From a virus: a stretch of DNA of 64,000 nt. Positions 276 through 25,276 of the stretch are shown here, one piece after another. A program made the translations under genes and the position numbers. Position 1 is the first letter of the stretch. Every line of letters begins with the position of its first letter. The DNA is taken from IMG/VR virus record IMGVR_UViG_3300037245_000888, positions 1 to 64,000 of that record; one strand, 5' to 3'. A model generated the notes under the pieces. That model made no database searches. It was not told where the DNA came from and saw only the letters and a list, made by a program, of their open reading frames with translations.

Positions 276-304
276 ATCTTAACATTTTAAATTAATCCTG
301 TCAA
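276..304 (-). promoter_or_regulatory. sigma-A type promoter
   Basis: Reverse strand TTGACA-17 bp-TAAGAT with TG extension. Confidence 0.75.
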
Positions 305-470
305 TGGATATTCGAAGTTTATTTATTATTTAATTGAGATCAATCCAACTGTTCGATATTCTGCAACAGTTCATTTTTATCCCTTTAATAGAAGGAACAT
401 GATTCTCAACTCAATTTCAGCCATTAAGCAGCTTAATTTCAGTCTATCTCAAACTATTTCAAATATATTG

Positions 471-499
471 TTGACATCTAAGATCAATCATGTTATTAT
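471..499 (+). promoter_or_regulatory. sigma-A type promoter, divergent from 276-304
   Basis: TTGACA-17 bp-TATTAT with TG extension. Confidence 0.75.
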
Positions 500-702
500 C
501 TATATAAAGAACGATTACAAACTACATCACATATAAATATCATCAGACATGTACTTTAAACAGTCAAAACATAGCCTACATGAAGATATAATACATTTCT
601 GGTGTAATTGCATTAGAAGAGTATAAAGTAGCTTTAAACAGGCTTAAAATGATGTATAGGATATAACTAATATTAAACTAACTATAATAAAGGAGAATAA
701 CA

Positions 703-1062
703 ATGAGAATACCTAAGATATTTAAAGGAACATATGGAAGTGGAAGAATACACAGAGTTAATCAAATGTCTCAACAAATGCAAAGAGATGAAGATCGTAA
801 TGATAGAGAATATCAAAGTATGTTAGACAACGAATCACCGGAAGAAACTAAATACAGAAAATTAAAAGTACAAAGAAAATTGAATAAACGTAATCTACAA
901 GCAGAAATCATATTCCTAGTATTTGCTATTATATTTTCATTAATGATAGTTTTAATGTATACATCAGGAAATAGATATGATGGAGCTGAGTGGATTACAA
1001 TGTATACATCTGTTGTTGTGTTGTTTGGATTATATATTTATCAGAAAGGATTAGTAAAATAA
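703..1062 (+). CDS. hypothetical membrane protein (2 TM)
   Basis: AAGGAG RBS; two C-terminal hydrophobic segments. Confidence 0.7.
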   Translation: MRIPKIFKGTYGSGRIHRVNQMSQQMQRDEDRNDREYQSMLDNESPEETKYRKLKVQRKLNKRNLQAEIIFLVFAIIFSLMIVLMYTSGNRYDGAEWITMYTSVVVLFGLYIYQKGLVK

Positions 1063-4000
1063 ATATTGGATTTATGTGAGAATTATATTGACAGATGTTA
1101 TTATGAGTGATAGTATGTTGATATTGGATGTTGAATGAAGGAAATAAAAGGAGAGATAAAGTGAAAGCAAAAGAATTAGCAGAAGAATTGGTAAAGATTG
1201 AAGACATGCTGGAAATATACAAAAGACTAATGAGTGAATGTCAAATTAGATTTACATTAATAAAAGATCAACGATATCCGAAAGGCATTACTGAACGAGG
1301 ATATAAAGACATTTTCAAAGAAGTGGATTCATACTTTGGTTCAGTTGTAAGAAATTTAATCAAGTTGGATAGTAAATTTAGCGATTTTTCATATGTATAT
1401 AAAGATAAGACTAATAAAGTATTGGAAGAGTTGGGATATCAATTTAGAGTTTAAGGAGGATTAAAGTGAATATGAAATGTAGTCAATGTGAGAAAGAAGC
1501 TACTCAAAGTGGAAGTGAACTTTGTAAAGAATGTGAAGATGAAATAATTGAAGAAGGTAAGCAGCAGTTAAAAGAAGATCTAGCAAATTACTATTCTGAG
1601 ATTACAAATGGAATAGGATTTATAAGGAGGAAGTAAAAATGAAAGAAAATACAATTTGTAAAGAATGCGGTGAATGGGTATCTTGTACATGTGACGATGA
1701 TAAATTATGTGGATGGTGTTATCATTTCGATGGTGAGCAATGTAATGCACTCGAAGAAAGTCAACCATCAATGAATAAAAAAGAAGATGATAAATGTGAT
1801 TGTGGACAATTCGAAACACCATAAAAGGAGGAATTAAAGTGAAATTAGCAAAAGCAACAATATATTATTATTCTCATGAAGGTAAGCCAACCAAAAGTCT
1901 ACATGAATTATTAAGCTTAAAAGATTGGATATATTATGATTTATTTGATATCGAAGAAGTTGAGATTGGTGAATGGTATGATCAAATTGATTTAAATAAA
2001 ATCACTGCTAACAAAGAAACATATGAAAATTATTTTGAAAGTCACACAAAAGCAATGATATCTATTGTAAGTGATACAGTCAGACTAATGGAAGTGAGTG
2101 ATATTACTGGTATGAAGTTGAAAGAAGCTGTTGATAAAGTATGTAAGAATTATTTAAATAATGGAAACAACGATAAACCTGTAAGAATATTACTTGAAGG
2201 AGATATATCATTAATTACTGAAAGATGTAGAATGATATTAGAATACTAAGGAGGAGAAGTAAATGTTACCTAAAGAAATGTTGGAAGATGGATTTAAATG
2301 TATTAATCATTCTGGAGAAGTATTATACTTATTAAAGAGAGTCGGTGAGTTTTATAATGAAAGAGGCTCCCAATTTGCATCACTTTATGAGTTTGATGAC
2401 AATTTATTATTACTAAACAGAAAAGATAAAGATTTTAACATAGTTGAAATATATGACAGAGAAGATAAACTGGTATGGGTTGACAAAGATTACAATGAAA
2501 ACAAAATAGCATTATTAGAAGCTGAAATTCGTGAAAAGGAAGATGCGTTGTGTAATGCTATAGATAAACTTAGTCATAGAAGGATTATCAGAAATATTAA
2601 TTATATTAATAAGGAGGAACAAAATGAAAACTAATAAAACTAAACAATCGGCAACCTGTGGTGAATGCCATTACTGTAAGCAAGATGAAACTAATCTTAA
2701 CTCTGGTGAATGTAGAAATAAATATATACATAGAAAGAGAACTGGAATCAGAACTATTAAGTGTGGTAGATTTACCGGTAGAATGGATATATTGAAAATA
2801 ATCTGGGATAAGATTAATGGATTTTAAGGAGATGTGAAATGGATTATATAAATAATAATTGCTTTGAAGAAAGATTGATCAGAGAACTTCTTGAAGAAAA
2901 CAATATAGAAGTCTCCACTGATAATGTACATAAAATGTATAGCCTTCATTTATCTGATTATATGGATAGACCAATCAAAGATTTATTTAATCAAAATAAA
3001 TACATATACACAGATTGGTATCAGAAACATCAATATGACATTGAGGTTAAAGAGAAAATAAAACATATCATTCAACAATATGAATATCTTGAGCAAATGA
3101 TTAATAGTTATAATGACTATGATGATGCTGATAATATGGAATTAACTTTTAAATGTGATCAAGCTATAACTGATATGATTGAGGCTGAAAGTATTATATG
3201 TGTAAATGAAGATAATAGACTATCAAAATCTAAAGAGTTACTAAAAGAAATGTATGGATTATTTTCTACTGGCTTGGTTAAAGGTAAACACAATAGCATC
3301 CTGCGTAAAAATAATTTCAGTGAAAATTGGGAAGAATATATTTCTTTTGATGACATATGGTTTGAAGTAAACTATGAAAAAGATTCTTGGAAGGGAATAT
3401 CTAGCTATAGAACTATGATTTATGTAGATTTAAAATTAGGTAAGTCATTAGAGGAATCTGATGGATCGTCTGAAAAACAGGACTATATCAGAAAAAACTT
3501 ATTTAAAATAGGTGAATTTAATGAAAATAGTATTGATATAAAAGACAAAGATTTTATGAAAATTGTAGTTAAGATTATCCATCAAGTAATATCTGAATAT
3601 AAAAGTGTCATAGAAATTAAAGCAGTTGAAAAAGCTGCAGAAAATAGAGAGAAAAATATAGGATATAATAAAAAAGAAGAAATTAAATATATTAAACTCT
3701 CTGAGATTAAAAAGAGAATTAAGAAATCAAGCAAGGAGACTAAATAAAAATGTTTATACGTAGAGTTAAACAAATAATTGTAGAATCTAAAGACTTCACT
3801 GAGGATGATAAAGTTTGTCCTCATTGTAGTCGAGTTGGAACGGATATGGTAGGAGGTTCTATCAAGTGTTTAAATTGTGGAACTAAATGGAATGTTATTT
3901 TAGAGGAGGTAAATAAGTGACTAAAATATATAGATATTATATAGATGAAAAAGTAATCAAAGAAGAAGTGATTGAATGTGAATTTGATGGGATATGTTAT

Positions 4001-4947
4001 TTTATCCTAAGTCTTAGTGAAAACATTGTAATTGAAAAATATTTAGATAGCGGATTATACTATATTGAATATTATGATTCTGGAATTAGAGATGGATATT
4101 TCTATTCTCACAAAATGGATCATTCTACCATTATTGATTTGTATATTAATGAAAATGATAAAGCATGTTCTGATTTATGTTCAAGCTATTATTCATCGAG
4201 AGAAAAGTTATATTTAAAGAATATTGAATTAAAAAGCCTTAAACTTAGAATAGATAAGGAGGCTATCAATGAAAGCTAAATGTGTTTCAAAAGATTGGAC
4301 GTTAAGTATTGAAGTTGGTGAAACAAGAGATATTATAAAGAATATGAATAGAGGACTGGAAGATCAAGATAATCTAATTATTAATTTAAATGAGATTTGT
4401 TACACAAGTATAGATAGTAATTATTTCAAGAAACATTTTGAGGTGGTTGAAGAGGAGAAAGTAGATGAAATGGAAAAAGAGAATATCTAAATATAAACAG
4501 GAATTACTAGCAGGAATAAGACGGAAATGTAAATTTCTATTCATCCCTAAAACCATAAATGGTGAAACTAGATGGCTTGAATGGGCTATTTGGAAGGAAG
4601 TAAATTGTCATCATAGAGATGGTGATGAATGGGAAGTTGCCTATTGGGAAGATACAAAGGAGAATAAAGATGAATAAAGAAACTTTAGAAAAAGGAAAAG
4701 AATTAACTCGACAGATAAAAGATATAGATGATAAACTAGAATCTCTATCATGTATAGATGGATTCTCTAGAGATTTTACATTATCATTTAGAAAATCTTA
4801 TGAGAGTCGTTCAGATACAATAGTTTCATTTTCTGATAATAGTAAAGAAAAACAATATTTAAAAACATTTATTTCTGTGTGGAAAATTAATTTAGAAGAT
4901 GAAAAGCTTGAATTAATTAAAGAGTTTGAAGAACTATAATAACATTT

Positions 4948-19616: not shown

Positions 19617-19645
19617 AGTATAATCCTATATTATTAGTTTGTCAA
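19617..19645 (-). promoter_or_regulatory. sigma-A promoter
   Basis: TTGACA-17-TATACT on the reverse strand. Confidence 0.8.
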
Positions 19646-23223: not shown

Positions 23224-23595
23224 TTAGTTTAATACTTCAGTTTCAATTGCTTCATACTCTATTAATAGAGTGCTTTCTAGATTATCCAATGTTAAACCTT
23301 TTGCAACACTACCAAAGTTTTCAGAACTATAATAACTTACTGCATCAATAGCCTTTTGAGTATCGTTTGACATATCAGTATCACAATAGCTTTTTACATC
23401 ATCCCAATCAATCCAATCGTCAGAGATATCAATATATAAATCAAATAGTAAGTAAGTTTCTGCATCATCATCATAATTAGTTTTAAGAATATAATAACAG
23501 TCTTCTAAAGTATCTTTCTTTACTAAAATTATACCGTGCTCCAAACTAACATCACCAAAATTCTCATATCCGTTTATAACTTTTAAATCTGTCAT
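23224..23595 (-). CDS. acidic small protein (DNA-mimic candidate)
   Basis: AAAGGAG RBS before ATG at 23595; about 29 D/E versus 7 K/R in 123 aa. Confidence 0.65.
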   Translation of the reverse strand: MTDLKVINGYENFGDVSLEHGIILVKKDTLEDCYYILKTNYDDDAETYLLFDLYIDISDDWIDWDDVKSYCDTDMSNDTQKAIDAVSYYSSENFGSVAKGLTLDNLESTLLIEYEAIETEVLN

Positions 23596-23674
23596 TTTGC
23601 ACGCTCCTTTAATCCCTTGAAAACTCACTAAACAATTTTAGTAAGATTATGAAGGAATTAACCTTCATTGTTAA

Positions 23675-24313
23675 TTAATTAATTCTATAAATATAATAAG
23701 TTTCATCATCTACTACTTCGGTATTTTCATTTCCATCATAAGATGCTAATGTATGAGCGATTCCATCAATAGAAATACATTCTTCAATAGCTTCATCCCA
23801 ATCAATCAAGTTGTTATTTTTTGCGATTTCTGATAACTGCTCTTCTCCAAAATTATCTCTATACCATTCTACTGCTCCACCTTGATAATCGCATAAGTAG
23901 TCAAGAAAATCTTCTTCGGTTGTGCAGTTAGCTTCTTCCATTTCTTCAGTCAATCTATTTGTTTCGTTCCCTTCTTCATCTTCACAACAATCTTCTTCTC
24001 TAATATCATTCATATAAAACTCATATGATTCTCTCATAGCATCCTCGAACCATTCTTCATTTAAACAGTTGTTAATAATCCAACTTTGGAAACCTTCTGA
24101 AAATGACTGAAGTCCCATATCATCAATTAAATTATGAATGGATTCTATTGCAAGCTCTTCTGCTTTGTCTTCTGTCACAACTAAATACTCGCATCCTTCA
24201 AACTCGATAACATCATCACTGTAGCCTTCTTCTGGAAAATCAATATCAAGTAAATTTTCTGTGATTGTGTAGCCTTCCATTTTTAATATTACTATCATTT
24301 TCTCATTTAACAT
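23675..24313 (-). CDS. highly acidic protein (anti-restriction/DNA-mimic candidate)
   Basis: About 60 D/E versus 7 K/R over the last 201 aa; C-terminal DG.AH.LASYDG.E...YYIYRIN; start codon uncertain. Confidence 0.7.
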   Translation of the reverse strand: MLNEKMIVILKMEGYTITENLLDIDFPEEGYSDDVIEFEGCEYLVVTEDKAEELAIESIHNLIDDMGLQSFSEGFQSWIINNCLNEEWFEDAMRESYEFYMNDIREEDCCEDEEGNETNRLTEEMEEANCTTEEDFLDYLCDYQGGAVEWYRDNFGEEQLSEIAKNNNLIDWDEAIEECISIDGIAHTLASYDGNENTEVVDDETYYIYRIN

Positions 24314-24417
24314 ACCATACCACCTTTTCAAATCCCTCAAATTTAATCCCATTGATTAAACTCTTATTAGTAAGTATAAACTAATTGGATCAACTGCTTA
24401 TACTTACCGATTAAAGT

Positions 24418-24576
24418 TTAAATGTTATTAATGTAATCATTTAATATTGTTTGTGCGTTTATTCTTCTATGCAGTTGTTGGCATTCTTCAATTGTGATAT
24501 TACCACTTAAAGCATTTTCAGTTGCTTGTAAATATAATTTATGAAGTTGTTCATTATTCATTGTTTTAATAGTCAT
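24418..24576 (-). CDS. 52-aa hypothetical protein immediately downstream of the hammerhead
   Basis: AAAAGGAG RBS; MTIKTMNNEQLHKLYLQATENALSG...; below the ORF-track cutoff. Confidence 0.7.
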   Translation of the reverse strand: MTIKTMNNEQLHKLYLQATENALSGNITIEECQQLHRRINAQTILNDYINNI

Positions 24577-24597
24577 TTGTGTGATCTCCTTTTAGTT

Positions 24598-24655
24598 TGT
24601 CTCATCAGTGAATAAGTAACCAACTTATACAGACGGTTGTTAGACCGTTTCGACA
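24598..24655 (-). ncRNA. type II hammerhead self-cleaving ribozyme
   Basis: RNA reads UGUC-GAAA-CGGU-cuaaca-ACCG-UC/UGUAUAAGU-ugguu-ACUUAUUCA-CUGAUGA-GACA: complete core (CUGAUGA, GAAA, GUC cleavage triplet) with three pairing stems. Confidence 0.9.
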
Positions 24656-24739
24656 TTTTTAATCAATCCAAACATCATTTTTTAAAAAATTTTTATTCCA
24701 TTCTGATAACGCTTTTTTATTTACCATGTTTTCCTCCAG

Positions 24740-25087
24740 TTATCCCACTATGTACATATTGTACGGCATTGGTAAATCATAATTTTCATATGCTTTATTA
24801 TCCAATATTCTAATTACTTCATTTGACCAAGTCCCGTTTGACACTTCATATATAATACCTTTTTCAGTTACTATTGTGTAATCATTAACATTGCAAAATA
24901 TTTTAGTTTTCTTAATTTCTTCTTTTATTGAATCGTTTTGATTCCATGTACAAAACTTACAAGTTTCATGTTTTGGAGTTTCTCCATATTTTTCAAAGTG
25001 TAATAATAACATTTGTAAATAGCCTTTATAATTAATAGAATTATTTTTCTTTAATTCTTCCAATACCTCAACTTTAGTTTTCAGCAT
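24740..25087 (-). CDS. hypothetical protein, first gene of the early operon
   Basis: AAAAGGAG RBS before ATG at 25087. Confidence 0.7.
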   Translation of the reverse strand: MLKTKVEVLEELKKNNSINYKGYLQMLLLHFEKYGETPKHETCKFCTWNQNDSIKEEIKKTKIFCNVNDYTIVTEKGIIYEVSNGTWSNEVIRILDNKAYENYDLPMPYNMYIVG

Positions 25088-25152
25088 TTTATTTTCTCCT
25101 TTTATTCTCAAACAATACTAGACAATTCTAGCACTCTATAGAAAATAAAAAT

Positions 25153-25247: not shown

Positions 25248-25276
25248 AGTATAATCAATTAAAGGTACTATGTCAA
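25248..25276 (-). promoter_or_regulatory. sigma-A promoter driving the early operon
   Basis: TTGACA-17-TATACT on the reverse strand. Confidence 0.8.

Follow-up and report, generated by a model that had tools for sequence, protein, structure and literature searches.

The locus and the architecture of the element

The stretch of DNA considered here, called the window below, is the first 64 kb (64,000 nt) of the genome of an uncultivated phage, IMG/VR record IMGVR_UViG_3300037245_000888, a virus record of 111,832 bp with direct terminal repeats and a GC content of 30%. On the minus strand of the window, between two tiny open reading frames (ORFs) of 22 and 52 codons, lies a 58-nt element at 24655-24598 that is, by its sequence and its relatives, a complete type II hammerhead ribozyme. 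Its parts and its immediate neighbours are given below, each with the evidence on which it stands; R1 is a covariance model made from 64 family sequences found by pattern (alignment A1), and A3 is another family alignment, in which the window element forms one of the rows.

24598 to 24655, minus strand: type II hammerhead ribozyme, 58 nt, stem II open, stems I and III loop-capped (sequence read, descriptor, covariance models, minimum free energy (MFE) fold)
24655-24652 with 24601-24598, minus strand: stem II, 4 bp, G10.1-C11.1 adjoining the core (sequence read)
24649 to 24651, minus strand: core nucleotides G12 A13 A14, GAA (sequence read; family alignment A1)
24633 to 24648, minus strand: stem-loop III, ACGGU / CUAACA / ACCGU (sequence read; fold; covariation in the family)
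24631 to 24632, minus strand: predicted scissile bond, 3' of C17 (24632) and 5' of U1.1 (24631), at the GUC triplet 24634-24632 (hammerhead numbering; R1 and Rfam alignments)
24609 to 24631, minus strand: stem-loop I, 23 nt, UGUAUAAGU / UGGUU / ACUUAUUCA (sequence read; fold; same length and loop as in relatives)
24602 to 24608, minus strand: core strand CUGAUGA, C3 to A9 (sequence read; invariant in family alignments A1 and A3)
24592 to 24597, minus strand: 3' tail AACUAA, pairing with loop I as a pseudoknot (same register as the family; loop/tail covariation)
24659 to 24727, minus strand: 22-codon ORF, translation putative, with GGAGG (24737-24733) 5 nt upstream (sequence; its stop fits the family rule given below)
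24586 to 24591, minus strand: Shine-Dalgarno (SD) sequence AAGGAG of the 52-codon ORF, abutting the pseudoknot tail (sequence)
24418 to 24576, minus strand: 52-codon ORF, first cistron of the predicted 3' product (ORF call)

Read along the minus strand from 24655 to 24598, the element is 5'-UGUC, GAA, ACGGU-CUAACA-ACCGU, C, UGUAUAAGU-UGGUU-ACUUAUUCA, CUGAUGA, GACA-3', with GAA, GUC and CUGAUGA following one another in this order within 58 nt and the ends lying in stem II, which is the type II permutation. The nucleotides of a hammerhead core are all in place, i.e. C3 U4 G5 A6 N7 G8 A9, G12 A13 A14, the A15.1-U16.1 pair and an H17 (any base but G), here a C, and these positions line up with invariant columns in the alignments to R1 and to Rfam RF02276. 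The three helices are present, and they show covariation in A3. Stem III pairs 24648-24644 with 24637-24633 (5 bp, the first being A15.1-U16.1, A24648-U24633) around a 6-nt loop and reaches -4.4 kcal/mol as an isolated stem-loop; stem I pairs 24631-24623 with 24617-24609, eight of its nine positions being paired and the third (24629/24611) being a U.U, and is closed by loop I, UGGUU, at 24622-24618. The MFE structure of the isolated 58-nt element is exactly the three-way hammerhead junction, at -10.0 kcal/mol. Hammerhead_II ribozymes carry a pseudoknot of at least 4 bp between loop I and the nucleotides just 3' of stem II, and in the window the tail AACUA (24597-24593) can form 5 bp with loop I UGGUU, one of them G.U, with one spacer nucleotide after stem II; a sixth pair, U24623-A24592, is possible, giving 6 bp at tail offset 1, the register of the family.

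The preliminary description of this DNA, made from its letters, had placed a complete catalytic core with stems I-III at this site, a pseudoknot between loop I UGGUU and the 3' flank AACUA, and cleavage between 24632 and 24631. On direct reading of the minus strand all of its coordinates are correct; the pseudoknot pairs in the family register, with loop and tail covarying across the family, and the cleavage position agrees with hammerhead numbering and with both the R1 and the Rfam alignments. The assignment to type II hammerheads is likewise borne out, by homology to a large family.

Significance of the match and the Rfam threshold

A strict type II descriptor, run on both strands of the 111,832-bp genome, matches this site only. 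R1 returns the element as its sole match in the window, with 53.4 bits and an E-value of 1.5e-13, a score that is partly circular, as the retrieval pattern owes its 21 fixed bases to the window element itself. With the filters off, the next best R1 match in the 11 kb between 17 and 28 kb has 7 bits, and R1 has no match in the remaining 48 kb of the genome. These results bear on the proposal that AT-rich intergenic DNA matches the consensus here by chance, unrelated to ribozymes by descent, a proposal which has some arguments on its side: the Rfam score (see below), taken alone, is non-significant over about 250,000 windows, with the E-value rescaled, and a relaxed descriptor also matches a second site, at genome 65534-65595 on the plus strand (L148), which is almost certainly spurious. 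This second match has all-AU stems, lies inside a coding frame, receives no support from R1 and was set aside as probably due to chance. Against coincidence stand the gap between 53 bits and 7 bits for the next best R1 match, and the simulations: in 150 order-1 Markov genomes with the same dinucleotide statistics the relaxed descriptor found one match and a descriptor of the quality of the element found none (0/150). We regard a chance origin as extremely improbable, and the comparison with natural relatives, given in the next section, bears on it too.

An Infernal search with Rfam hammerhead models had been proposed as a check on the preliminary description, and its outcome is divided. When the 91-nt slice of the window from 24580 to 24670 is searched, RF02276 aligns over its full length (model positions 1-66 of 66) with 25.7 bits; this score is about 11 bits below the gathering score of 37 bits, and a hammerhead is unlisted in the larger scans, namely in the whole window at gathering thresholds, in 351 nt at E<=10 and in the whole genome searched with RF02276. 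The 37-bit gathering score is a curation threshold and not a biological feature. The Rfam alignment loses its score through the AU-rich stems and four non-standard pairs while the core is spared, so the sub-threshold score is explained by stems that are rich in AU and contain mismatches. The filters of Infernal, which are laxer at 91 nt, drop the element from scans of 351 nt upwards, also with a cut-off of E<=10. A structurally intact hammerhead in a phage of 30% GC thus escapes routine Rfam annotation, both by being filtered out and by falling short when the comparison is forced. Annotation is therefore likely to miss AU-rich ribozymes of low-GC phages, and there may be many of them.

A family of viral hammerheads and its placement between genes

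The relatives of the element were collected from viral contigs with the pattern GTCGAAAC-N(8-24)-GTC-N(14-40)-CTGATGAGAC, in which nothing but stem II, the core and the GUC triplet is prescribed. At least 147 matches were obtained in at least 120 viral-contig loci; 143 of the 147 pattern matches listed fold into stems I and III, and those checked in Rfam are Hammerhead_II with 39-55 bits. Loop I and tail covary among the matches (UGGCU/AGCCA, UGCCC/GGGCA and UGACCU/AGGUCA), the pseudoknot begins 0-1 nt past stem II, and its mean length is 4.46 bp when each loop is paired with its own tail, compared with 3.34 +/- 0.07 bp when the tails are permuted among members. In alignment A3, 96.9% of the cells are paired and both-sided changes occur in 16 of the 23 pairs, figures to be read with the caveat that the alignment was fitted to the model; none of 500 shuffles reaches the observed pairing, and partner columns that have been slid are 35-47% paired. 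On this family comparison the window element is a hammerhead by descent and not by coincidence.

Within the family, the element belongs to a recognisable subclass of aquatic viral metagenomes, characterised by the loop GUUGGUUAC and represented by 14 viral and 30 metagenome loci. The element and the subclass have the same 23-nt stem-loop I and an identical 9-nt loop (L068, L162, L184 and others), and the tail of the subclass, AAACYAA, consists of an A spacer followed by AAC(C/U)AA and, immediately, by an SD sequence of the AAAGGAG type, an arrangement which the window shares. Thus, stem-loop I length, loop, spacer and tail plan, AAAGGAG-type SD sequence and ATG start are common to the window element and to L068, L162/L163, L184 and L201. 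As the search pattern had left loop, spacer, tail, stem-loop I length and SD sequence free, their agreement is independent evidence; the fit of these features and of the stop/SD placement to a natural subclass, unused in the first search, is a further argument against coincidence. Among the closest look-alikes, which also include L198, a comparison of stem I with L184, L189 and L192 reveals a double change from G-C to A-U with the pair kept, and the U.U of the window coincides with a G.U wobble of the same three relatives; in L201, GACAAACCAAAAGGAGG corresponds to GACAAACUAAAAGGAGA of the window. The differences from the subclass are a tail AACUA with its G.U in the pseudoknot, where all retrieved relatives have AACCA, the U.U in stem I where relatives have G.U, and the genomic setting: the subclass loci have 39-59% GC, whereas the window genome has 30%, and no flanking genes are in common. 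The proteins of the operon likewise gave no tblastn matches in any of the hammerhead-bearing loci, i.e. no shared flanking genes were detected there. Nine matches to the loop pattern in genome contigs all lack the GAAA core and lie inside genes; they were rejected as chance matches and give no clue to the host.

Several observations weigh against an intact ribozyme. Besides the shortfall in Rfam and the circular part of the R1 score, no orthologous locus of the ribozyme site was found among phage records, viral contigs and 27 loci of relatives of the 212-aa protein encoded downstream, and, when the flanks are included, the hammerhead is 0.3 kcal/mol less stable than an alternative fold in which CUGAUGA is sequestered, the pseudoknot being uncounted in this comparison. 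The stems are the most AU-rich and the weakest in the sample (stem-loop I alone has -3.2 kcal/mol), the U.U mismatch lies three pairs from the core, the pseudoknot has a G.U where 30 of 30 metagenome relatives carry G-C, and stem II is extendable by a possible extra U-A pair. In type II hammerheads, small changes near the pseudoknot or in stem lengths can cost orders of magnitude in rate and, in one construct with a 1-bp stem II, a longer stem II led to lower activity (PMC3088659). The weak stems, the mismatch, the wobble, the extended stem II, the sub-threshold Rfam score, the high price of peripheral changes and the AACUA tail, which among the pattern matches listed only the window has in place of AACCA, would suit a relic, that is, a hammerhead by descent that is now crippled or very slow, cleaves too little to matter biologically and persists as an intergenic spacer and a hairpin. 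On the other hand, the invariant core bases are all intact and the register of the pseudoknot is exact, the paired exchange of G-C for A-U in stem I suggests ongoing selection for pairing, the hammerhead fold is the MFE structure of the element and would gain stability at sediment temperatures, and AU-rich stems are expected at 30% GC. On balance a relic seems to us quite improbable.

The position of the element relative to its neighbours is that of its family. In the preliminary description it was placed between the stop of one ORF and the ribosome-binding site (RBS) of the next, which was confirmed and equals the family norm. Placement was analysed in L001-L120, L151-L163 and L173-L202. Downstream, an SD-like motif with a start of an ORF of at least 40 codons, on the same strand and 10-45 nt past stem II, is present in 79% of 136 family members, compared with 13% of control (random) positions, with a mode at 20-29 nt. 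Upstream, the stop of an ORF with at least 40 open codons, ending at -6 to +1 nt relative to the first G of stem II, is present in 80% of 197 distinct members, compared with 4% in the control, and the commonest form of this stop is a TAG whose G is at the same time the first of stem II. In the window, the stop UAA of the 22-codon ORF (24661-24659) lies 3 nt before U24655, its distance to the first G of stem II being 4 nt; the 52-codon ORF starts with an ATG at 24576, 22 nt past stem II, in the spacing AAGGAG-N9-AUG. The element therefore falls within both ranges (stop -4, start +22), the upstream half only if the 22-codon ORF is real. This stop-ribozyme-SD architecture was not found stated in the literature searched, although it may already have been published elsewhere.

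Behind the family ribozymes come small ORFs (median 86 aa), and few of 105 downstream ORFs have PHROG matches at E<=1e-5. The named matches include a single-stranded DNA-binding protein (SSB), ATPases, a DNA methyltransferase, two anti-restriction proteins, RusA, a RecE-like exonuclease, a processivity factor and similar proteins, with no structural genes among the PHROG-matched ORFs of this set; the anti-restriction proteins offer a lead on genes with which the phage of the window may take over its host. Many phage contigs carry the ribozyme in arrays, such as the 12 copies in about 4.5 kb of L161 (IMGVR_UViG_3300010362_000024, 280-4724) and the 7 copies in 3 kb of L036 (8402-11317), with essentially one ribozyme ahead of each small gene. 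In prophages, several hammerheads have been reported to flank individual genes, the identity of which is not constant (PMC3088659), and the array pattern observed here agrees with this report.

The predicted transcription unit and the proposed role of the ribozyme

The credible genes between about 18.6 and 26.2 kb are all small and all on the minus strand. The following further features of this block belong to the predicted transcript of the ribozyme.

25248 to 25276, minus strand: sigma-70-like promoter match TTGACA-17-TATACT (11/12), candidate start of the ribozyme transcript (consensus match only)
24740 to 25111, minus strand: upstream ORF, 123 codons from TTG, on the predicted 5' product (ORF call)
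23675 to 24313, minus strand: 212-aa very acidic protein, isoelectric point (pI) 4.05, second cistron downstream (ORF; viral hypothetical-protein family)
23224 to 23628, minus strand: 134-aa acidic protein, pI 4.05 (ORF)

The predicted order on the transcript is the 116/123-codon ORF, the 22-codon ORF, the ribozyme, the 52-codon ORF, a long hairpin, the genes of the 212-aa and 134-aa proteins and further small ORFs, and the next terminator-like site on the minus strand is at 21147-21120. For the 123-codon ORF, a start at codon 8 behind AAAGGAG, which gives 116 codons, appears more likely. An identical promoter match, TTGACA-17-TATACT (11/12), is present at 19617-19645 (minus strand) in the same block of small genes, and the two could be repeated early promoters for the host polymerase. 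The label of early operon given in the preliminary description seems reasonable in view of the sigma-70-like promoter matches and of the small genes without known function. On the plus strand, a terminator-like call at 24631-24650 was discarded, being the complement of stem III, without a plus-strand gene and with a poor T-run.

Hammerheads cut 3' of H17 by attack of its 2'-OH, leaving a 2',3'-cyclic phosphate and a 5'-OH. We estimate at about 0.85 the probability that the element is an intact self-cleaving ribozyme which acts as an intercistronic processing site; minus-strand transcription, cleavage, its rate and its effect on expression are in this case inferred from the sequence. After transcription of the 58-nt element and of the 6-nt tail, stems III and I would fold as local hairpins, stem II would close the junction, and the pseudoknot between loop I and tail would keep stem I alongside stem II. 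The 2'-OH of C17 (24632) would then attack its own 3' phosphate, cutting the chain between 24632 and 24631. The upstream product, with the 116/123-codon and 22-codon ORFs, would have the stem III hairpin and a 2',3'-cyclic phosphate at its 3' end, and the downstream product would begin with a 5'-OH on a fully paired stem I hairpin, with the AAGGAG-N9-AUG of the 52-codon ORF within about 30 nt, followed by the 212-aa and 134-aa genes. Stability and translation of one half would then probably no longer depend on the other, and the downstream RBS would always stand in the same 5' context. Type II hammerheads with a pseudoknot cleave fast in vitro at physiological Mg concentrations in a pseudoknot-dependent manner (Perreault et al. 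2011, PMC3088659). Processing of a polycistronic RNA would be the most economical role, one which has been proposed in reviews and called unproven (PMC6765202); the tight placement statistics turn this idea into a testable architecture.

Whether cleavage would protect or destabilise the downstream message is a separate question within the reading of the element as an active ribozyme. In the destabilising case, the exposed 5'-OH would be attacked by an exonuclease of the RNase J type, shutting off the genes of the acidic proteins after a short burst. A precedent exists in Bacillus subtilis, where RNase J1 breaks down the RNA with a 5'-OH that cleavage by the glmS ribozyme leaves behind (Collins et al. 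2007, summarised in PMC3328962), and the low GC content hints at a Firmicute host, expected to have RNase J; because of this precedent, protection of the downstream mRNA would hinge on the fully paired 5' end of stem I. Here, however, U1.1 is paired to A2.1 and leaves no single-stranded 5' end for loading of the exonuclease, family members precede the RBSs of replication, recombination and anti-restriction genes which the phage presumably expresses, and RiboJ, the engineered analogue, raises expression. We therefore consider the destabilising outcome unlikely.

It can also be imagined that phage type II hammerheads, that of the window included, are intercistronic switches gated by translation. 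The 5' strand of stem II lies at or overlaps the upstream stop, and its 3' strand, with the tail, runs into the next SD sequence, so that a terminating ribosome or an initiating 30S subunit might occlude stem II or the pseudoknot and cleavage might take place only on ribosome-free RNA. The geometry allows such gating, with no other support for it, and we hold it to be a speculative and rather doubtful extension of the processing role. If this is true, the type II permutation would serve as a sensor through which the cutting of mRNA responds to translation of the neighbouring cistrons in early, replication and recombination modules of phages, a natural counterpart of synthetic ribozyme insulators.

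The comparison with known systems bears on both identity and role. With Hammerhead_II (RF02276; Perreault, Weinberg, Roth, Breaker et al. 2011, PMC3088659) the window element shares the permutation, the core, the pseudoknot and the setting among small genes of phages and prophages; it differs in its score, 25.7 bits against a threshold of 37, and in being a single copy, unlike the arrays of many phage contigs. In Desulfovibrio vulgaris, three type II hammerheads, likewise predicted and likewise adjoining genes of phage origin, cleave in vivo, as mapped by cyPhyRNA-seq (PMC8782182), which shows that such predictions are usually active in cells; organism and sequences are different. The glmS ribozyme is also a self-cleaving element of bacterial mRNA whose 5'-OH product sets the fate of the message (PMC3328962), but its fold is unrelated, its activity requires a cofactor, its site is a 5' UTR and it makes the message downstream less stable. 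A functional analogy, not a membership, links the element to the engineered part RiboJ. RiboJ derives from a plant satellite RNA and has the type III topology. It consists of a satellite-RNA hammerhead followed by a hairpin before the RBS, works in a similar way by removing the upstream RNA and leaving a hairpin-capped leader with a 5'-OH, and increases protein levels 2-10 fold in Escherichia coli when placed upstream of the RBS (PMC6206723).

As regards the genes downstream, the preliminary description had spoken of acidic proteins, which applies to the second and third of them: the 212-aa protein, with 61 D+E, and the 134-aa protein both have a pI of 4.05, but the product of the first ORF (52 aa), with a pI of 6.0, is not acidic. 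A search for homologues of the 212-aa protein gave 57, none of them named and most of them encoded on viral contigs, with P0002 (59% identity) among the closest; no hammerhead was found in the 27 viral loci collected through the alignment of its wider homologues, so the ribozyme is not tied to this gene family. The 212-aa protein has no Pfam match, and nothing significant resembles it among solved structures or in the ESM Atlas, the best solved structures being ZnO7 (E 0.086) and AcrVA4 (E 0.29). That its acidic composition hints at a DNA mimic or an anti-restriction protein is only a guess. Pfam assigns one DUF6874 among the operon proteins and nothing else, the 52-codon ORF has no Pfam or PHROG match, and the flanking 225-aa and 123-aa ORFs have no relatives in viral contigs. 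The ribozyme marks a boundary in the block of small genes, shortly before the genes of the two extremely acidic proteins.

Phages have been known to carry type II hammerheads since 2011, and the window element is, by its sequence relationships, an ordinary addition to a known ribozyme family; its value lies more in the blind spot of Rfam and in the stop-ribozyme-SD architecture than in the single copy. As to the phage itself, megablast against phage records gave no close relatives, and the public sequencing runs contain its DNA in one case, a DNA run of a marine sediment metagenome that is its probable source, and in no RNA run.

Other RNA structures were noted along the genome. Close to the ribozyme, a long imperfect hairpin (24357-24420, minus strand) extends from the stop of the 52-codon ORF to about 40 nt ahead of the SD sequence of the 212-aa gene; the 121-nt stretch has -26.3 kcal/mol (z -3.5), with none of 200 shuffles as stable, and no U-run follows the hairpin. 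The hairpin might serve for cutting by RNase III or for stabilising a 3' end, and would then bracket a small monocistronic RNA together with the ribozyme. Outside the window, at genome 103184-103283 on the minus strand (L150: 1285-1384), lies a skipping-rope RNA (Rfam RF02924) that scores 54.4 bits, above its gathering score, and three tRNA genes (L150: 867-939, 4277-4362 and 4514-4585) are located near it.

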